Virus record (IMG/VR): IMGVR_UViG_3300028832_002797
Strand: one strand, 5' to 3'
Origin: a virus
Taxonomy: Duplodnaviria; Heunggongvirae; Uroviricota; Caudoviricetes
Length of the DNA stretch: 41,232 nucleotides
How positions within the stretch are numbered: the first letter of the stretch is position 1; each line of letters begins with the position of its first letter. Both the position numbers and the translations under genes were made by a program. The notes below the pieces were generated by a model. It saw only the letters and a list, made by a program, of their open reading frames with translations. It was not told the DNA's origin and did not search any database. Positions 1 to 25,851 of the stretch are shown here, piece after piece.

Positions 1-18
1 CAATTAGCGTACCCTGGA
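1..18 (-). tRNA. Possible 5' end of a further tRNA, truncated by the window edge
   Basis: Minus strand reads TCCAGGG-TA-CGCT-AATTG, resembling acceptor 5' strand, nt 8-9 and start of a D-arm, 10 nt after the previous tRNA-like gene; rest is outside the window. Confidence 0.4.
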
Positions 19-28
19 ATATGTTTAG

Positions 29-104
29 CTGTTTACAATGGAGTCGAACCAATACCTCTCACCCGCTGCAGCGGGAAGCGCTCTGCCAGTTGAGCTAGTA
101 AACA
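29..104 (-). tRNA. tRNA-like gene with non-canonical anticodon arm (identity undetermined, GCA/Cys-like)
   Basis: Acceptor TGTTTAC/GTAAACA, D-arm GCTC-AACTGGCA-GAGC, T-arm ATTGG-TTCGACT-CCATT; anticodon arm contains the palindrome CCCGCTGCAGCGGG and about 3 extra nt; no CCA. Confidence 0.7.
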
Positions 105-143
105 AAAATAAAAAATCCTGTAAGTTTCATATCTTACAGGATT
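105..143 (-). terminator. Intrinsic terminator (attenuator 1) abutting the tRNA 5' end
   Basis: 11-bp stem AATCCTGTAAG/CTTACAGGATT, 8-nt loop, then TTTTATTTT. Confidence 0.85.
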
Positions 144-179
144 CGTTTAAATTCACTCTTTTTATCGATGAAACAAAAA

Positions 180-242
180 CTAATCCTGTAGTACCTCAGG
201 GTTATTCGGATTGACGGTATTTGTGTTCATCGTGAAAGTCAT
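180..242 (-). CDS. Leader peptide 1, MTFTMNTNTVNPNNPEVLQD (Thr/Asn-rich)
   Basis: Translated by hand; purine-rich GAGAG upstream; ACT, ACG, ACA, ACC and five Asn codons; stop codon lies in a segment complementary to the terminator 5' arm. Confidence 0.75.
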   Translation of the reverse strand: MTFTMNTNTVNPNNPEVLQD

Positions 243-262
243 TTTGTTTTCTCTCTTTTAAT

Positions 263-297
263 ATTATATATAGAAATTTTTTTGGTGTTTTCGCTTT
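263..297 (-). promoter_or_regulatory. Class-2 promoter motif AAAGCGAAAA...CTATATATAAT
   Basis: GCG-N23-TATAAT, same spacing as at 8791-8825 and 25817-25851. Confidence 0.7.
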
Positions 298-314
298 TTG
301 CTTTAACGTTGTTA

Positions 315-343
315 AATATAGTAAAGTTTATTCCTTTTGTAAA
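315..343 (-). promoter_or_regulatory. Sigma70-like promoter TTTACA-N17-TATATT
   Basis: Matches the window-wide consensus TT[G/T]AC[A/G]-N17-TATATT. Confidence 0.8.
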
Positions 344-346
344 CCC

Positions 347-928
347 CTAAACGGAAAAATTTTTCATCTCGGCGTTTGATTCTTCTCTATAATATTTATC
401 AGCCAGCTTTTCCATCTTGTTATTCAAGATACCGAATACAAGACCGAGAATACCACCGATAAAATGTGCAGCATGACCGATATGATCGTTTGCGTTGATT
501 TGCTGCAATTCCGGAATAAGCTTCAAGAGGATAAGAACGATACAGGTGAAAGAAATTCCGGTATTTTCCTTACAGAAACAATGGAGCAAAATAAACATGA
601 AACAAATATCAGACATTCCGATTCCAGCCACGTTACGTAACGAACCTACAAAGCTCGTAGCCAAAGTGGTCAGGATAATCATCGTAACTGTTCTGATAAT
701 TCCAAAACGACGTTCGATTACCGGACCGAGCAATGCGATGATAAAGATATTCGACAGCCAGTGGGTAGAAATATCGGCATGAACCAGAGTTGTAGTAATC
801 CAGGTCCAGCTGAAATTTTGAGTCATCGTGCAGGCAGACTTCAGTCCCGGCGTAATCGTGATAACGAAGCTGCTGATGATGAGGATTGCGGTAATGATTT
901 CGTCTTTGAAGAAGTTAGCGATTTTCAT
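347..928 (-). CDS. Rhomboid-family intramembrane serine protease
   Basis: Hydrophobic; LVHAD..HWLSN, GPVIERRFG, GMSD (GxS catalytic Ser), HAAHFIGG (catalytic His). Confidence 0.75.
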   Translation of the reverse strand: MKIANFFKDEIITAILIISSFVITITPGLKSACTMTQNFSWTWITTTLVHADISTHWLSNIFIIALLGPVIERRFGIIRTVTMIILTTLATSFVGSLRNVAGIGMSDICFMFILLHCFCKENTGISFTCIVLILLKLIPELQQINANDHIGHAAHFIGGILGLVFGILNNKMEKLADKYYREESNAEMKNFSV

Positions 929-935
929 GACCTAT

Positions 936-964
936 AATATAGTAAAATAGGTCAATTCAGTCAG
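936..964 (-). promoter_or_regulatory. Degenerate sigma70-like promoter CTGACT-N17-TATATT
   Basis: Consensus -10 at 17-nt spacing from a weak -35. Confidence 0.5.
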
Positions 965-973
965 CCCTTTTTA

Positions 974-1723
974 TTACTTCCAGAAGCAATAGAGACACTT
1001 GTGCCCGCACCTTGACGGTTTGACACTCAGTATTTGTTTCTTGGCCAGACACATGCAATCACCGCGTTGTTTATTTTCCGGCTGTCCATATTCAGAAACA
1101 TCGACATTAAGAATAGCCAAGTCAGCATAACTCGCACATCCAATCTGAGTAACGAGATTTGTACTGAAGCCTTGTTCCACACAGGATTCAAAAACAAACG
1201 CATCCTTGAATTTAACTAGTTCATTTTCGACTTTCTTGAAATATTCTTTAGGAGCAGTAAAAGTATTCCAGGGAATATCAATAGTCATCGCATCCTGAAT
1301 ACGTTGCCTTACATGGTCATACATGTCAATCATGGAAATACGACAACGAATTCTCAAGTTGCGTTCTTTCAGATATGGCTCCCATAATCTGAAAACATTT
1401 ATCGTATTATTTAAAATGTCGTCATTAAATGGCATAATAGGATCTACACGAAGAACATAATGAGAAATCGGAAAACCTCGTTCAATCAGTTTCTTGAACT
1501 GTTCGAATTCCTTTTTTGGAGGCTGAACGTTAGGTTCGAGAATTTTGTTTCCCTGGCCGGTAACGGTATGATGGAAAATAACTCTATCTTTTACGATGAG
1601 CAATTTTTCAATCATTTCATCGGAAAGTTCCTTGGAGATAATGATATTTGCTTCAAGGAGTTTCACTTCCCAGTCAGGAACAAAACATGGGTCGAATGTT
1701 TCAGTAATTCCGATTTGCTTCAT
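974..1723 (-). CDS. DUF1848-like (radical SAM/spore photoproduct lyase-related) protein
   Basis: HHTVTG..LEPNV, LRVDPI, QRGDCMC and C-terminal CGHKCLYCFWK. Confidence 0.65.
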   Translation of the reverse strand: MKQIGITETFDPCFVPDWEVKLLEANIIISKELSDEMIEKLLIVKDRVIFHHTVTGQGNKILEPNVQPPKKEFEQFKKLIERGFPISHYVLRVDPIMPFNDDILNNTINVFRLWEPYLKERNLRIRCRISMIDMYDHVRQRIQDAMTIDIPWNTFTAPKEYFKKVENELVKFKDAFVFESCVEQGFSTNLVTQIGCASYADLAILNVDVSEYGQPENKQRGDCMCLAKKQILSVKPSRCGHKCLYCFWK

Positions 1724-1724
1724 A

Positions 1725-2315
1725 TTAGTCCTTATAAAGTTGGTATTTCTTACTCAACTTATGACTGATGTCATCGCTTAACGGTTTGAACCAGATACCT
1801 ACACGACAACGACCGACACCGTTCTCGTCAGTAAATTCCGGAGTAAGATCCGTCTTGCATACATCATCGATATAACCAAAATCCTGTCCTTCGACAAGGC
1901 CGAGTTCCTTTGCAACATCAACTACCTTCATAAGATGATTAAGATTCTTAGCTTCACAGATAGTCTTGGTAAAGATACCGTTCACGTAATCATTCCAAAT
2001 ATCTTTTGAAAGTTCGATACCGATAGAATATGTCTTTCTCGGATTTTCTTCCGGATATTTAAATGTTTTCTCACCACGTTCATGCGCTGCTTTGGCTGCT
2101 TTATAAACAGCTGGATGTCTATAACGTGTCCAATAATTTGGGTCGCCGTTAATTTCCGTTGGCAAGTTTACGAATTCGTTATCCTTGATTCGACCTTGCG
2201 CAACAAAACTCTTGAGCAAGTTCATCCAATATCCTTCAGCACAATGGCCGACCATAGCCGCGAGCTTGCCCGCATGAAGATTCAAATCTTTTCTAATGAT
2301 AAATAAACGTCTCAT
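1725..2315 (-). CDS. Peptidyl-tRNA hydrolase, Pth2 family, with internal insertion
   Basis: IIRKDLNLHAGKLAAMVGH, TKTICEA, IDDVCKTD, VGIWFKP; start moved to the ATG overlapping the upstream TGA. Confidence 0.75.
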   Translation of the reverse strand: MRRLFIIRKDLNLHAGKLAAMVGHCAEGYWMNLLKSFVAQGRIKDNEFVNLPTEINGDPNYWTRYRHPAVYKAAKAAHERGEKTFKYPEENPRKTYSIGIELSKDIWNDYVNGIFTKTICEAKNLNHLMKVVDVAKELGLVEGQDFGYIDDVCKTDLTPEFTDENGVGRCRVGIWFKPLSDDISHKLSKKYQLYKD

Positions 2316-2671
2316 AGCCAATCCTTTACAGAGTTTAGAAACTTAATAAGTTCAGAAATAGAATAATATCTATTCTTGATACTACCGATAATGTTATCTG
2401 TGTATAAATCGTCTTGTTCACTGATTTTCCATGAATATTCCAAAGGATGTTCTTTGTTGACATAAACCGTGATGTCATACCCATGACCGAAATCAATCTT
2501 AACCGCATTCATAAATTTCTGGTTAGATACATATAATGGAAATGCCTGTTTTAACCGGCCTCTAAGATTTCCAACATACGGTTTCAAAAACTCAGCTTCT
2601 GCTTGAAGCCGTTTTCCGTATTCTGCAAGTTCTTTATTTATTTGTCTACAGCTTTCGTCGTCTTTAAGCAT
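2312..2671 (-). CDS. Hypothetical protein
   Basis: 119-aa ORF tiling the minus-strand gene array. Confidence 0.6.
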   Translation of the reverse strand: MLKDDESCRQINKELAEYGKRLQAEAEFLKPYVGNLRGRLKQAFPLYVSNQKFMNAVKIDFGHGYDITVYVNKEHPLEYSWKISEQDDLYTDNIIGSIKNRYYSISELIKFLNSVKDWL

Positions 2672-2835
2672 TTGTTTGTCCTTTTAGGATCTTTTTTGTT
2701 AAAATAATCCCAAATGTCAATATTTGAAATTTTACGTTTAGAACAGGAATATGTAGGCATGTTCATCCACAGAAAACAACGTAACCTATTTAACTGATGA
2801 CGTAGCAATTCAATTTCTTTATCCTTCTCGTCCAT
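2638..2835 (-). CDS. Hypothetical protein
   Basis: 65-aa ORF in operon context. Confidence 0.5.
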   Translation of the reverse strand: MDEKDKEIELLRHQLNRLRCFLWMNMPTYSCSKRKISNIDIWDYFNKKDPKRTNKCLKTTKAVDK

Positions 2836-2838
2836 AGT

Positions 2839-3078
2839 TTATTTTTCCTCTACTTTTTCAATATCTTCTGGATAACACCAAAGCCATTTCTTAATTCTTG
2901 ATATATAATACTCACATTTTAAATCATGAAGATGTAGTTGTTTCTTATCACTAGTTAAAAAATACCACTGTATATCATTCATTTGTTTTTTAGGAGAACG
3001 AGCTAAAATCATTTTATATGATTCTGGCATTTCTTCTTCAAATGTTTTCCATTTAAATTTGTATATTTCTTCAACCAT
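2839..3078 (-). CDS. Hypothetical protein (weak DUF551-like pattern)
   Basis: WKTFEEEMPE...WLWCYPE. Confidence 0.55.
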   Translation of the reverse strand: MVEEIYKFKWKTFEEEMPESYKMILARSPKKQMNDIQWYFLTSDKKQLHLHDLKCEYYISRIKKWLWCYPEDIEKVEEK

Positions 3079-3593
3079 TAATCTACCTTTATATTAACGG
3101 TTTTCTCAACATATTCAACATTTGCCTTTTTATAAGCACGATACTTCTTCCAGTAATCCTTTGTATCTTCAAACAATGTATAGTACCAGCCACGTTTGTC
3201 CAATTCAATAAACAATGCATACATTTCTTTTTGGACCTTTTCACCAGCCCAACCCCAACCGCGACGGTTACGATATTTTTCTTCAATGGCATAGACTTTA
3301 TCCCATAGTTCCTTGTCTTTACCAGTCAAGTCTTTAATATAGTACTCTTCTTCATAGTCGGTATTGTGAAATTTGTAATTTACTACAGCACAGATATGAT
3401 GATCATCCATTTCTCGACCATTGTGCTTGTGAACATATCCAAACTGATACCAATAATTTTTCGGTAATGTCGCATCAAAATCCTTCTTAATCGGATTTTC
3501 ATCCATATAATGCTGTGCCGATTTGATAGAAGAATAACCCATGCCCGCTTTGTCTAAGCTAACACCTTTATACATTGGAAAAATACGTTTCAT
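3078..3593 (-). CDS. Hypothetical protein
   Basis: 171-aa ORF with 1-nt stop/start overlaps. Confidence 0.65.
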   Translation of the reverse strand: MKRIFPMYKGVSLDKAGMGYSSIKSAQHYMDENPIKKDFDATLPKNYWYQFGYVHKHNGREMDDHHICAVVNYKFHNTDYEEEYYIKDLTGKDKELWDKVYAIEEKYRNRRGWGWAGEKVQKEMYALFIELDKRGWYYTLFEDTKDYWKKYRAYKKANVEYVEKTVNIKVD

Positions 3594-4783
3594 TAGAAAG
3601 CCGCCTTAAAATTATAAACTGGTTTGATAATCTTTTCGATAGTGCAAGTAGGTTCGATATTCAACATGATTTCTTCCATAGGCTTATAGGCCATAGGGCT
3701 TTCATCGATAGTAGCAGAAGAAACACAAGAAGTGAAAATTCCCTTCATTGCTTCCTTATAGTCCTTCATGGAAATAGAGTTCTTAGCATCAGCACGAGTC
3801 ATTAGACGACCAGCACCGTGAGGAGCAGAATAGTTCCAATCCGGATTTCCCTTACCGACACAAATCAAAGAACCGTCACGCATGTTCATTGGAATGATTA
3901 CACGTTCGCCTTCCTGAGCAGAAATAGAACCTTTGCGGAGAATCATGTTCTTGAGGTCGATATAGTTATGGATAGTTTCGAACTTTTCTGTAACCTTGAA
4001 ACCCATTTCCTTGACGATTACATCAAGCATAGCGGCACGGTTCAAAGCGGCGAACTGTTGGACGATTTCCATATCGTGCAAATAGTTAGCCATGTGCTCG
4101 CCAGTGAGGTAGGAAAGATTCTTAGGAACAGAGAAGTGGTCATAATCCTTCATGAGTTCCTTAATTTCAGCGTCAGTCTTTCCCTGAGCCTTATACTTGG
4201 AGATTTCAGCACCACGAATAGCGGTCAGGTCAGCACAATCCTTGATAGCGAGATTCTGCCAGTATTCACAGGTAGCGACACCTAAATGGCGAGAACCAGA
4301 ATGGATAACGATATAAAAAGCACCATCGTCGTCCTTATCGACTTCGATGAAGTGATTACCACCGCCAAGCGAACCTAAACTCAGAAGTTCTTCACGTCTC
4401 ACGTCAGCAATGAGTTCTTCAAACTTTTCATCGAATTCATTTGCGAAACGGTGACGATTGTTTCTGTGTTCCTTACCAGATGGAATCTTTTCCTTGATAA
4501 CCTTATCAAGTTTACCGAATTCAATAAACTTGTCTTTAAGCTTTGCGACAAGCATCCCGCAACCAATATCAACGCCCACAAGGTTAGGTACAACCTTATC
4601 CTTGATAGTCATAGTGGTTCCGACAGTACAATCCTTGCCCGCATGCACGTCAGGCATGATAGCAACATTAACATCGCGAGCCCAACACTGGCACATCATA
4701 TTCAAAATCTGTGAATATGCCGCATTGTCGATGTTATCTGTAAAAACTTTCGCAGTATTATATTTTCCTTGAATCTCAAGCAT
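3593..4783 (-). CDS. rtcB: RtcB-family RNA 2',3'-cyclic phosphate/5'-OH ligase
   Basis: MPDVHAG, VGVDIGCGM, GSLGGGNHFIEV, IHSGSR, HNY, RKG, SAPHGAGR; start at MLEIQG with AAGGAA RBS. Confidence 0.95.
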   Translation of the reverse strand: MLEIQGKYNTAKVFTDNIDNAAYSQILNMMCQCWARDVNVAIMPDVHAGKDCTVGTTMTIKDKVVPNLVGVDIGCGMLVAKLKDKFIEFGKLDKVIKEKIPSGKEHRNNRHRFANEFDEKFEELIADVRREELLSLGSLGGGNHFIEVDKDDDGAFYIVIHSGSRHLGVATCEYWQNLAIKDCADLTAIRGAEISKYKAQGKTDAEIKELMKDYDHFSVPKNLSYLTGEHMANYLHDMEIVQQFAALNRAAMLDVIVKEMGFKVTEKFETIHNYIDLKNMILRKGSISAQEGERVIIPMNMRDGSLICVGKGNPDWNYSAPHGAGRLMTRADAKNSISMKDYKEAMKGIFTSCVSSATIDESPMAYKPMEEIMLNIEPTCTIEKIIKPVYNFKAAF

Positions 4784-4794
4784 AATTAAATTCC

Positions 4795-5112
4795 TTAATA
4801 ATACGGTACTAAAATTACTTCCGGGCAGAATGTCCAATATGCAACAGATTCCCATTCTTCATGGTCAGAATCCTTATCATAACAAGTATCTTCTACCCAA
4901 GTCCAATCAAAATGTCCATCGTCATAATAAGCCTTACCTACAGCTCTCATTCCATAGGTACCGTCGTTATAAAGCACCCACAACATCGTACCGAGCATTT
5001 CATTAGTAGGTGCATCAAGTCGACGACGCCAACGAGTCAACGGAGTATATATAATCTTATCTTCATCCGTCAAGTTGTCGAGAACTTTCCTGTTAAACTT
5101 ATCGTAAGACAT
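4795..5112 (-). CDS. Hypothetical protein
   Basis: 105-aa ORF in array. Confidence 0.6.
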   Translation of the reverse strand: MSYDKFNRKVLDNLTDEDKIIYTPLTRWRRRLDAPTNEMLGTMLWVLYNDGTYGMRAVGKAYYDDGHFDWTWVEDTCYDKDSDHEEWESVAYWTFCPEVILVPYY

Positions 5113-5386
5113 AATTCGTAATATTCCTTATAACCGTTCCGTCATTACATTTGAAGTTTGTCAAGTTTGACACACCGACAGTAACGACTTCATGCTTTCC
5201 GATACATACATGTCTGAATGTACCATTTGAAAAAATATCCAATTTTTCAACACCCAAATCAGACTCCATGAGTCCTTGGGGATGCATATCACATGCATCC
5301 AGTCCATAAAAACAAATGCACACGACAAATGCAGTAATAAGCATGCCGCCAGCAGTTTTACCAATCTTCTTCAAGATATTTTTCAT
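5099..5386 (-). CDS. Hypothetical membrane/exported protein
   Basis: Basic N-terminus followed by a hydrophobic segment. Confidence 0.55.
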   Translation of the reverse strand: MKNILKKIGKTAGGMLITAFVVCICFYGLDACDMHPQGLMESDLGVEKLDIFSNGTFRHVCIGKHEVVTVGVSNLTNFKCNDGTVIRNITNYVLR

Positions 5387-5394
5387 ATAAATGC

Positions 5395-5682
5395 CTAATG
5401 CTTTGTTGATTCTAAATTTTCTTTATTATCGGTGAATTTTCCCTTTGTACCGAATAATGTATTAAACGAACGAACATTTAACGAATCTACCATACCGCGT
5501 GTAGCAATATCCTTAAATGTTCCAAGTTGCCAAATCAAAAACAGTTGATCTTCGCTGAGCGGCGGCTGTCCTTTGCATTCGTTCAGACGCTTCAGTTTTC
5601 CAAGAAGAATCCTAAGTTTTACTAGTTCTTCTTTTGATAATTCAATCGTTACACGTTCTCCGACTAATTCCTTAAGAAACAT
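5395..5682 (-). CDS. Hypothetical protein
   Basis: 95-aa ORF in array. Confidence 0.55.
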   Translation of the reverse strand: MFLKELVGERVTIELSKEELVKLRILLGKLKRLNECKGQPPLSEDQLFLIWQLGTFKDIATRGMVDSLNVRSFNTLFGTKGKFTDNKENLESTKH

Positions 5683-6386
5683 TATATAGTCTCCTTAATC
5701 ATAGTAAAAATATGTTTGCACTTCTCGTTTTCTTCACGACGCTTAATAGCTACGTCAATTTTTTCCTTATTTTTATCAAGCCAGGTCATATACGGTTCAA
5801 TGAAACGAACAGTATCATACTGATAACCCTTGGTTTCTTCTTCCGTAGGACTCAACTTAAATGCACGCAATACATACTTCTTGTATTCATCCAGATACTT
5901 GCTTTCGCACTTCGGTCTAAGAAATCCAAAATATTCCGTAATTGCACTGGCCTGAATGGCGTTACCAAATACGTAGTTATTCTTTTCGCTAAGAATAGAA
6001 AGCGTCGGAGAGAACAAATAGTCTTTATTCTTTCTGTATGTTTCAACAGCAGCCTTGATAGTTTTTTCAGCACGCTCCGTAATATAATTGATACGGACTA
6101 TAGCATTCAGCAAGTCTTCTTCACGAAGCATATTACCATTATAGAACGTTACGCCGCTATTATTGAGGTCACCGATAATAAAACCTGCCTTAGTCGTATA
6201 TGTCGGAACTTCCTTATCATTTACGGACGTAAACGTAAGATCATTCAATTCTTCGAAAAGGTCAGTATTCTTGATACGGATGCATTCATTTTCCGCGTCA
6301 TAGAAGAAATGGTCCTTGCGTTCGATACGTTCATTGAGTTCGTCAACAGTATAGAGCTTGCGCTTGCCGAAAAGATTGAAAAACAT
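5682..6386 (-). CDS. Hypothetical protein
   Basis: Start moved to MFFNLF (AAGGAA RBS) because a promoter cassette occupies 6414-6450. Confidence 0.65.
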   Translation of the reverse strand: MFFNLFGKRKLYTVDELNERIERKDHFFYDAENECIRIKNTDLFEELNDLTFTSVNDKEVPTYTTKAGFIIGDLNNSGVTFYNGNMLREEDLLNAIVRINYITERAEKTIKAAVETYRKNKDYLFSPTLSILSEKNNYVFGNAIQASAITEYFGFLRPKCESKYLDEYKKYVLRAFKLSPTEEETKGYQYDTVRFIEPYMTWLDKNKEKIDVAIKRREENEKCKHIFTMIKETI

Positions 6387-8557: not shown

Positions 8558-8633
8558 TTGGGGCAGAGAGATTTGAACTCCCGAATAACGGTTTCAGAGA
8601 CCGTTGCCTTAGACCGGACTTGGCGATACCCCA
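8558..8633 (-). tRNA. tRNA-Gln(CUG)
   Basis: TGGGGTA/TGCCCCA; ACGGT-CTCTGAA-ACCGT; GGGAG-TTCAAAT-CTCTC. Confidence 0.93.
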
Positions 8634-8639
8634 GTATAT

Positions 8640-8669
8640 AAAAAGAGTTCCTGTATCGCTACAGGAACT
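8640..8669 (-). terminator. Intrinsic terminator (attenuator 2) 6 nt upstream of the tRNA cluster
   Basis: 10-bp stem AGTTCCTGTA/TACAGGAACT, GCGA tetraloop, then CTTTTT. Confidence 0.85.
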
Positions 8670-8701
8670 TCAAAACCAACATAACAATAGGATCTTGTTC
8701 G

Positions 8702-8773
8702 TTAACCCATAGCAAAACACCAGCATCTCTGCTGTTTTCTTATTTGTTTTACTTGTTTAACGAACCTTAACAT
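8702..8773 (-). CDS. Leader peptide 2, MLRFVKQVKQIRKQQRCWCFAMG
   Basis: AAAGGA RBS; codons 6-16 are AAA CAA GTA AAA CAA ATA AGA AAA CAG CAG AGA, matching the downstream tRNA anticodons. Confidence 0.85.
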   Translation of the reverse strand: MLRFVKQVKQIRKQQRCWCFAMG

Positions 8774-8790
8774 TTCTGTTTTCCTTTGTT

Positions 8791-8825
8791 ATTATATATA
8801 GTTTTTATTTTTCTTTTTTCGCTTT
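8791..8825 (-). promoter_or_regulatory. Class-2 promoter motif AAAGCGAAAA...CTATATATAAT
   Basis: GCG-N23-TATAAT. Confidence 0.7.
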
Positions 8826-8827
8826 AT

Positions 8828-8856
8828 AATATAGCAAAAAGTTTTTCTTTTGTAAA
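8828..8856 (-). promoter_or_regulatory. Sigma70-like promoter TTTACA-N17-TATATT
   Basis: Consensus; TAGGGGTTTACAAAAG is shared with the promoter at 315-343. Confidence 0.8.
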
Positions 8857-8875
8857 CCCCTAAAAAGAAAATTTT

Positions 8876-9316
8876 TTAGCGGTTATCGTTATCGATGATA
8901 ATTTTGGATTCCGGGCAGAATACAAAATTAAACAACGCTTCAGGGTCAAGGAGGAATGCCGCAAGTGTTGCAGCACTGTGAACGCTCTGATGGTCGATAT
9001 AACCAGTAATCTCGTTGACATACTTCGGGATAACAAGTTCAACCTGTTTCGAAGCGAAATATTCAACGACACTATCCCGGTTATCGTTATACTGGTCAGC
9101 CCAGGCGCCGTTCATACTGATAGCCACAAGCCAGTAGTCAATAAGCTGGCCAGGTTCTTCCAATACGTCATAACCCCAGTCATAGTTTCCATCACCTGCA
9201 GCCTTTACCATACACGGGTCTACGTGCAGGTTCGCGTATGCGCTTGCACACGGGAAACAAATCAGATGTTCAGATGAACTGTTAGTTTCGAATACTCCAA
9301 CTCTAAGTGTTTTCAT
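8876..9316 (-). CDS. Conserved phage protein with FETNSSS motif
   Basis: RVGVFETNSSSEH and GYIDHQS; family I recall as often adjacent to phage radical SAM genes. Confidence 0.65.
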   Translation of the reverse strand: MKTLRVGVFETNSSSEHLICFPCASAYANLHVDPCMVKAAGDGNYDWGYDVLEEPGQLIDYWLVAISMNGAWADQYNDNRDSVVEYFASKQVELVIPKYVNEITGYIDHQSVHSAATLAAFLLDPEALFNFVFCPESKIIIDNDNR

Positions 9317-18304: not shown

Positions 18305-18330
18305 AATGTATTTCCTTTTTTAAATTTTAA

Positions 18331-18685
18331 TGGACCCGTTGGGAGTCGAACCCAAGTCTTGAATAACTTCAATATCCGTTCCTACAAGCTTTCCCTTCGA
18401 ATTTACTTATTTGTCATACCTATGCCCTGAAGGTCGGCGTCAGTATAAACTAGCCTGTGATTTTCGGAAATAATAGACAGACTTAACTATTTCCTAGCCC
18501 GTTTGCGACTGGACTCTACACTCAACGGGCGAACGGTATAGGTCCAGGGTTGCTATTGATTAAGCAGCCATTGCGTATGTATTAGCAATTATTTTTTTTC
18601 AGACTTTTTAACGTGTGTTTTCCCACGTCTGAGACCACGGCTTGCAACTAATATATTCATCACCCAATCGAAACCAGGCGAGCCC
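18331..18685 (-). ncRNA. ssrA: tmRNA, tag (A)ANTYAMAA
   Basis: Acceptor GGGCTCG/CGGGTCC-A with G3.U70; TGGTTTCGA D-loop; T-arm TTGGG-TTCGACT-CCCAA; tag frame 18560-18586 after ATAATT; no CCA encoded. Confidence 0.93.
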
Positions 18686-25630: not shown

Positions 25631-25650
25631 GTTGTTTTCTCTTGTGGTTA

Positions 25651-25687
25651 AATATAGTAAAAAAGCCGCTCTTTGTAAGCGGCTTTT
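25651..25687 (-). promoter_or_regulatory. Terminator-promoter cassette that also serves as the attenuator 3 terminator
   Basis: 10-bp stem AAAAGCCGCT/AGCGGCTTTT plus T-tract; CTTACA-N17-TATATT. Confidence 0.85.
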
Positions 25688-25726
25688 ATTTAAAATTGTT
25701 TGTAAATTTTAATTAACGGTATTTAA

Positions 25727-25801
25727 TTAAAATACGACAAAACAAGCCGCGATATGTGACTTGCTTGATGATGAAATAATGTCGTACTTTCTAATAATCA
25801 T
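25727..25801 (-). CDS. Leader peptide 3, MIIRKYDIISSSSKSHIAACFVVF (Ser/Ile-rich)
   Basis: Hand-translated; AGGT RBS-like; TCA TCA TCA AGC AAG TCA; contains GCGGCTT, complementary to the terminator 5' arm. Confidence 0.7.
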   Translation of the reverse strand: MIIRKYDIISSSSKSHIAACFVVF

Positions 25802-25816
25802 TTCTGTTACCTATGC

Positions 25817-25851
25817 ATTATATATAGAAATTATTTTTTAGTTTTCGCTTT
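25817..25851 (-). promoter_or_regulatory. Class-2 promoter motif AAAGCGAAAA...CTATATATAAT
   Basis: GCG-N23-TATAAT, overlapping the end of the upstream ORF. Confidence 0.7.

Follow-up and report, generated by a model that had tools for sequence, protein, structure and literature searches.

A codon-matched leader before a phage tRNA operon has the sequence-level anatomy of a ribosome-mediated transcription attenuator

Leader-peptide attenuators sense a single amino acid, as in trpL, hisL and pheL, or several at once, as in thrL (Thr/Ile codons) and the ilvGMEDA leader (Ile/Leu/Val). The pheM leader of pheST brings leader-peptide attenuation to an aminoacyl-tRNA synthetase operon. T-box leaders, which carry conserved Stem I and T-box motifs, bind uncharged tRNA directly and do so without translation. 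The genes of tRNAs themselves are textbook promoter-controlled genes, governed by growth rate and the stringent response. Our full-text literature searches found leader-peptide attenuation for protein-coding operons only and did not find leader-peptide attenuation of tRNA genes; a Phe-rich leader suspected for E. coli pheV was rejected as a precedent, because K-12 pheV has ~105 nt with promoters and no leader ORF. The attenuation mechanism at pheL has been described (PMC3082878).

The stretch of DNA analyzed here (hereafter the window; 41,232 nt, GC ~0.38) appears to be part of a very large phage genome. Nearly all of its long ORFs lie on the minus strand, and it also carries several tRNA genes, one tmRNA and one cow-rumen-2 RNA. 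At one edge of the window, a leader rich in Thr, Asn and Pro codons precedes a tRNA operon. Like the thrL and ilvGMEDA attenuators, this leader has a short and putatively translated ORF rich in regulatory codons, alternative helices 1:2, 2:3 and 3:4, an intrinsic terminator whose U tract immediately precedes the regulated genes and a stop codon sited for blocking the antiterminator, and several amino acids would be sensed by one leader. As in pheM/pheST, attenuation would be aimed at the translation apparatus and not at biosynthesis, but the pheST target is protein-coding and a single amino acid is sensed there, whereas the targets here are tRNAs themselves. With T-box leaders it would share the sensing of tRNA status and a terminator/antiterminator switch. 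In contrast to the enterobacterial attenuators, the window element would regulate tRNA genes, so that its output would feed back on the decoding capacity that is sensed; in addition, it is phage-borne, it belongs to a paralogous family with one leader per tRNA block, and the synonymous codons of the phage leaders follow the anticodons present. Classical members control biosynthesis enzymes or synthetases, while the targets here are a tRNA-like gene and Asn, Pro and Thr tRNAs. At the level of sequence, the leader, its codons, its helices and its geometry all agree with an attenuator, and the class of regulated gene differs. We consider it likely, with a probability of about 0.8, that the window element is a classical ribosome-mediated (leader-peptide) transcription attenuator gating a phage tRNA operon.

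Leader anatomy, alternative helices and ribosome position

The features of the locus, in the order of transcription, are as follows.

347-928, minus strand: rhomboid-like membrane protein gene, directly upstream of the Thr/Asn/Pro leader
315..347, minus strand: promoter-like element P1, GGGGTTTACAAAAG followed by TTTACA-17-TATATT (343-315), sigma-70-like, from a consensus scan
263..296, minus strand: conserved module AAGCGAAAA-N14-CTATATATAAT, a second promoter or an A-rich 5' UTR
ATG 242-240 to TAG 182-180, minus strand: leader ORF of 20 codons plus TAG, MTFTMNTNTVNPNNPEVLQD
220..232, minus strand: segment 1 (CGATGAACACAAA), inside codons 4-8, pairing with 177-166 in the minimum-free-energy fold
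166..190, minus strand: segment 2, with the stop codon inside it; segment 1 pairs with its 3' part, segment 3 with its 5' part (190-177)
133..148, minus strand: segment 3, AAAC plus the terminator 5' arm
105..144, minus strand: intrinsic terminator and U tract (stem 144-133/124-113, loop 132-125, U tract 115-105)
29..104, minus strand: tRNA-like gene, first in the operon, with acceptor, D and T arms; a UGCA-tetraloop stem replaces the anticodon loop
1..18, minus strand: start of tRNA-Asn(GTT), its first 18 bases, cut by the window edge (from the overlap with contig L290 and an ARAGORN call)

A short ORF with a start codon (ATG 242-240) lies behind promoter-like elements (343-263). P1 matches a sigma-70-like consensus at 10 of 12 positions, and the Shine-Dalgarno-like sequence of the ORF is weak (AGAGAG). 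The P1 14-mer occurs exactly at two sites in the window, here and before a Lys/Gln/Arg leader (8847-8860), and the P1 module recurs at many sites in related genomes. The AAGCGAAAA-N14-CTATATATAAT module with its fixed 14-nt spacing is found in the window only at three leader elements (263-296, 8791-8824 and 25817-25850). The ORF itself was already recognized in the initial annotation, and it is indeed a minus-strand frame of 20 codons using all four Thr codons and five Asn codons, although its coordinates are one base higher than the earlier numbering implied. Its codons include ACT, ACG, ACA and ACC for Thr, five for Asn, CCG and CCT for Pro, GTC and GTA for Val, and an internal Met. The regulatory Thr/Asn/Pro(/Val/Met) codons occupy positions 2-15, and the last five codons (EVLQD) are non-cognate and overlap segment 2.

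The terminator hairpin (144-113) has 12 pairs, including one G-U, and an 8-nt loop, and was positive in a terminator scan; an 11-bp stem had been proposed for it. The other pairings proposed from the letters alone were borne out: segment 2 at 190-177 pairs with 148-135 at 13 of 14 positions, and segment 1 can sequester segment 2 through pairing of 232-220 with 177-166 plus further inner pairs. In silico, helices 1:2, 2:3 and 3:4 are mutually exclusive, with 3:4 being the terminator followed by its U tract, and their predicted energies as isolated helices are similar (-16.4, -17.7 and -15.4 kcal/mol, respectively). The minimum-free-energy fold consists of the 1:2 hairpin and the terminator, with z = -4.0 against shuffles. 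Only 2 of 1000 dinucleotide shuffles had a best duplex between segment 3 and the upstream region as good as the real one, and only 4 of 1000 matched the 1:2 duplex. The U tract (115-105) does run straight into the tRNA-like gene at 104, as had been noticed, and since this leaves no room for a promoter between the two, the tRNAs would be expressible only by read-through. A sub-threshold Rfam match to the trpB motif (E 0.26; score 24.7 bits, gathering threshold 59) was rejected as an identity for the element, because it reflects a generic hairpin-plus-terminator shape.

The position of the ribosome was modeled by masking a 28-nt footprint and folding the transcript as far as the beginning of segment 4. 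The 2:3 antiterminator forms for every A-site position from codon 1 to codon 14; for codons 16-20, zero segment-3 bases pair upstream, and at the stop codon six can. From these boundaries, every cognate codon (2-15) lies in the responsive zone. In this footprint-mask model segment 2 is free during a stall at the regulatory codons and is covered once the ribosome sits at the stop codon, so that masked folding reproduces the logic put forward in the initial annotation, in which a ribosome at the stop would block the antiterminator and stalling would free it. The terminator is always the equilibrium structure of the full-length RNA. Before segment 4 is made, 2:3 beats 1:2 at equilibrium even without a ribosome, implying that tight termination in the unstalled state would depend on folding order and kinetics. 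For several paralogs, in which segment 3 can pair with the spacer as well, the equilibrium footprint model does not discriminate. Public RNA runs contributed short assembled contigs only, in small shares; one 186-nt metatranscriptome contig spans 200-385 and carries no start, end or strand information.

The tRNA operon behind the leader

For comparison DNA we used IMG/VR relatives and one metagenome scan. The relatives compared are three complete or nearly complete IMG/VR phage contigs, G001 (411,059 bp, CheckV 98%), G002 (424,163 bp, with terminal repeats) and G006 (415,750 bp, with terminal repeats), which have ~85% protein identity in the flanking gene. A megablast of window positions 1-6000 against GenBank phages returned a short RtcB match and nothing else. 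The exact promoter-module pattern retrieved the orthologs of a third leader (described below) plus one chance match and no more, and scans with an AT-rich pattern and with a segment-2 16-mer gave mostly chance matches, which were filtered by the presence of downstream tRNAs. Scanning metagenome contigs with a 30-mer from the tRNA-like gene returned four contigs.

Contig L290 is identical to window positions 124..1 at 124 of 124 bases, and beyond the overlap it shows the tRNA-like gene, two tRNA-Asn(GTT) genes, an inserted endonuclease-like ORF and two tRNA-Pro(TGG) genes. Because the overlap is identical and ARAGORN calls tRNA-Asn(GTT) there, window positions 1-18 are the start of a tRNA-Asn gene. 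Contig L293 has an identical leader, with 3 mismatches over ~1050 upstream bases, and continues with Asn, Asn, Pro-TGG, Pro-CGG and Thr-AGT, then a plain promoter, and then Asn, Pro-TGG, Thr-TGT and Met. The earlier prediction of Thr and Asn tRNAs left of the window, possibly joined by Pro, was borne out by Asn and Pro on L290 and by Asn, Pro and Thr on L293. Asn, Pro and Thr tRNAs (plus Met and Val) likewise stand behind the orthologous leaders of G001, G002, G006 and two further contigs.

ARAGORN calls the leading gene of the operon (29-104) as tRNA-??? with a 2-base anticodon. It scores 38.7 bits against the Rfam tRNA model (gathering threshold 29), with 17 nt in place of the model's 13, and its anticodon arm has an extended stem and a loop of 4 nt. 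Its acceptor and central stems covary with those of G001 and G002, and the replacement stem has 5-8 bp across the window, G001 and G002, capped by a tetraloop that is complementary to itself (UGCA in the window and in G001, GGCC in G002). The gene is missing at three other orthologous loci, where tRNA-Asn directly follows the terminator. It is possible that it serves as a decoy or a processing handle. More tRNA-like genes of this kind are present in G001 (ARAGORN anticodons 'ga' and 'ca').

Two observations concern the make-up of the blocks. Endonuclease-like ORFs sit between tRNA genes (L290 ~300-1100; G001 135500-136270 and 155310-156080), each with its own TATATATAAT-containing upstream sequence, and are present or absent by phage; from their sequence context, they look like mobile homing-endonuclease genes reshuffling tRNA blocks. 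In G002 (415050-415154) and in contigs L085 and L220, the Thr/Asn/Pro leader comes directly after other tRNA or tRNA-like sequences, without a TATATATAAT module or an obvious promoter of its own, and the two Asn/Pro/Thr sub-blocks follow each other in the opposite order from that in the window and G001. In these three, the leader appears to be an internal attenuator within a longer tRNA transcript.

Codon match and co-evolution across the leader family

Under strict wobble, 9-12 of the 19 post-start codons of the window leader are cognate to the downstream tRNAs; genes of the window have a share of 0.13-0.18 (binomial P 2e-5 to 3e-4), and at most 11 of 9893 19-codon stretches of real genes reach the leader's share. 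At the amino-acid level, 14 of the 19 codons match. CCT and GTC are read only with extended wobble or with tRNAs known from relatives alone.

A common arrangement introduces nearly all tRNA blocks of G001: first TATATATAAT, located 170-280 nt upstream of most blocks, then a short ORF with hairpins, and finally a terminator whose end lies a few bases ahead of the first tRNA. The G001 leaders and their blocks are as follows.

Lys/Gln/Arg leader: block of Gln-CTG, Lys-TTT, Arg-TCT and Gln-TTG
Thr/Asn/Pro leader: ortholog of the window leader
Glu/Ala/Phe leader: block of Glu, Ala and Phe tRNAs
Asp/Lys/Gly/His leader: block of Asp, Lys-CTT, Gly and His tRNAs
Leu/Ser/Trp leader: block of Trp, Leu and Ser tRNAs
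Tyr/Cys/Ser leader: block of Tyr, Cys, Met and Ser tRNAs

Almost every tRNA block in G001, G002 and G006 has its own leader of the same design (n=7 in G002), and all leaders examined have an intrinsic terminator followed by a U tract. When all leaders were compared with all blocks (6 leaders in G001 and 7 in G002), the leader's own block accounted for 0.38-0.72 of its codons and other blocks mostly for 0-0.2, the exception being the paralogous pair of Thr/Asn/Pro blocks in G002, with cross-matches of 0.47-0.50. Pairing each leader with its actual block gives the unique best of 720 permutations in G001 and of 5040 in G002. Codons tied to the function of the downstream genes are therefore enriched both in the window leader and, by the permutations, in the family. 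This comparison of loci beyond the window leader itself provides the strongest evidence for the attenuator model.

The match extends to synonymous codons. Lys is encoded by AAA in 3 of 3 cases before tRNA-Lys(UUU) and by AAG in 5 of 5 cases before tRNA-Lys(CUU), compared with an AAA usage of 0.40 in genes, and CAG in leaders is limited to blocks having tRNA-Gln(CUG). The Lys/Gln/Arg leader of G002 is without CAG and its block without Gln-CTG, while its three ATA codons face a tRNA-Ile(TAT). The second Thr/Asn/Pro leader of G002, MQLVVTTNVTPVNNPKVTFD, stands before Asn-GTT, Pro-TGG, Thr-TGT, Met, Val-TAC and Leu and uses ACA three times, CCA twice and GTA four times. In G006, the Leu/Ser/Trp leader has gained Gln and Cys codons and stands before a block with Gln-CTG and Cys-GCA, Cys codons are missing from the Tyr/Ser leader and the Cys tRNA from its block, and the Glu/Ala/Phe leader has gained Val codons and is followed by two Val tRNAs. 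As read from these comparisons, codons in the leaders are gained and lost together with tRNA genes.

Conservation was examined in six orthologous variants of the window leader. All four segments are invariant, and variation falls in the terminator loop, the spacer and the middle codons. All six keep the reading frame despite a 3-nt indel, and substitutions preserve composition: the N-terminal two thirds vary and stay composed of Thr, Asn and Pro, and EVLQD is found in every ortholog. At the base of helix 1:2, two pairs covary among the orthologs (CG to UA and GC to UA). Helices 2:3 and 3:4 are invariant among these close orthologs and show no covariation, so their support comes from conservation and from the comparison of paralogs. 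In the paralogs, the stop-codon region pairs best with the terminator arm of its own leader (-9.8 kcal/mol on average, compared with -6.2), a result equaled by only 1 of 20000 random assignments.

Further leaders were observed as well. A second tRNA leader in the window (8633-8876, minus strand) has the same promoter modules, encodes MLRFVKQVKQIRKQQRCWCFAMG and ends in a terminator; behind it follow Gln-CTG, Lys-TTT, an uncalled tRNA-like stretch, Arg-TCT, Gln-TTG and Lys-TTT, and its AAA, CAA, CAG and AGA codons exactly match the anticodons of the tRNAs behind. A third leader (25650-25850, minus strand; ortholog L005 10928-11130) has the AAGCGAAAA-N14-CTATATATAAT module and a Ser/Ile-rich ORF of 24 codons, and the 5' arm of its terminator is complementary to GCGGCTT within the ORF. 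Protein-coding genes lie downstream of it, and a Pfam search of the four genes behind it gave no match. The Tyr/Cys/Ser leader of G001 (212299-212395, L033) has an in-frame TAA after codon 8; the frame past the TAA contains Cys, Ser and Tyr codons matching the tRNAs behind, and the G002 ortholog is uninterrupted. This TAA could be a recent mutation, a sequencing error or a site of read-through.

Proposed mechanism, alternative explanations and meaning

For the mechanism, we infer three things: translation of the leader, the direction of the switch and its physiological signal. Transcription would start at the promoter-like elements (343-263), and a ribosome would translate the 20-codon leader. 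Slow decoding of Thr, Asn or Pro codons (possibly also of Val or Met) at positions 2-15 would leave the ribosome stalled over segment 1, and segment 2 (190-177) would pair with segment 3 (148-135) once this is made, blocking the terminator and letting the polymerase read into the tRNA-like gene and the Asn, Pro and Thr tRNA genes. If decoding is fast, the ribosome would reach the last codons or the TAG in segment 2 and block the antiterminator, the hairpin 144-113 would form, and transcription would end in the U tract 115-105. In the absence of translation, helix 1:2 would form first and termination would again be favored. The outcome would be negative feedback, with the tRNA block made when its own decoding capacity is short; the phage probably makes these tRNAs only when the leader's codons are read slowly.

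Other explanations for the leader can be considered. It could be a constitutive, leaky terminator that sets a fixed low tRNA level or ends the transcript of the rhomboid-like gene, with an ORF and helices that sense nothing. AT-rich intergenic DNA often has short ATG frames and hairpins, and the preference of the truncated RNA for 2:3 at equilibrium would cause leakiness. However, such a terminator leaves unexplained why 13 leaders in two genomes match their own blocks as the unique best permutation, why the match reaches synonymous codons, why codons change alongside tRNA gene content, and why the frame is kept and the segments are invariant. Promoter-like elements also intervene between the rhomboid-like gene and the terminator, arguing against a terminator of that gene, and we regard a leaky terminator as quite improbable. 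The ORF could also encode a small functional peptide, with the terminator merely ending its gene, and the C-terminal EVLQD kept in 6 of 6 orthologs would fit this. This conserved tail is, however, RNA segment 2, the N-terminal two thirds vary in sequence while their Thr/Asn/Pro composition is kept, and the paralogous leaders are alike in architecture only, without similarity of their peptides, so we give a functional peptide very little credence.

The codon match implies that decoding matters and says nothing about what follows from it. A translated leader could therefore sense decoding speed and act by another route or in the opposite direction, for example through Rho-dependent termination, through an RNase that cuts behind the stalled ribosome or through a processing signal that depends on translation and sets the tRNAs free; the outcome of 1:2 versus 2:3 would depend on kinetics, and the leaders of G002, L085 and L220, which lie inside a longer tRNA transcript with no obvious promoter of their own, would suit such a route. 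The stop codon, though, lies inside the segment complementary to the terminator 5' arm, and it does so also in paralogs with different terminators, as expected for a terminator/antiterminator switch; together with the intrinsic terminator and U tract of every leader examined, this makes another route or direction unlikely in our judgement. If, on the other hand, the codons were untranslated specifiers, the leader could be an RNA-only, T-box-like switch binding uncharged tRNA. The signal would be tRNA-related here too, and terminator/antiterminator alternatives are common to T-box leaders. Nevertheless, many cognate codons stand in one frame behind an ATG, and this frame survives indels of three; T-box leaders are far longer, and Stem I and the T-box sequence are missing here. 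No T-box or other cis-regulatory family in Rfam exceeded its threshold, and for the T-box covariance model in particular there was no match at the gathering threshold in the window or at E up to 1 in positions 1-400. A T-box-like switch is therefore highly improbable, and the ribosome-mediated attenuator is the reading that we prefer.

Several genes with roles in translation rescue are found in the same window, and together they group around its tRNA operons.

1725-2321, minus strand: PTH2-type peptidyl-tRNA hydrolase gene
3593-4855, minus strand: RtcB RNA ligase gene
18328-18685, minus strand: tmRNA, tag ANTYAMAA

A gene for a DUF1848 protein is among those adjoining the Thr/Asn/Pro leader. 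Phage tRNAs have been proposed to replace host tRNAs targeted by tRNA-directed defences (PMC10264068). We speculate that such defences would give a leader sensor a clear use. As a tentative and on balance doubtful extension of the attenuator model, the leaders might together act as a counter-defence sensor, in the form of a phage-wide circuit that matches tRNA supply to sensed demand, with each block turned on when host tRNAs are depleted or cleaved in infection, for example by anticodon nucleases, and with RtcB, PTH2 and the tmRNA belonging to the same translation-rescue programme.

Since each leader spells out the tRNAs that follow, leader composition predicts tRNA content and could be used as an annotation rule, which worked here across the window edge. 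The leader may also offer synthetic biology a compact, programmable codon-specific sensor. For the phages themselves, if the attenuator model is true, the leaders would constitute a direct homeostat of decoding capacity, reading exactly the codons served by the tRNAs behind them, and would provide a testable answer to a long-standing question, namely what the expression of tRNAs serves in large phages and when it takes place.
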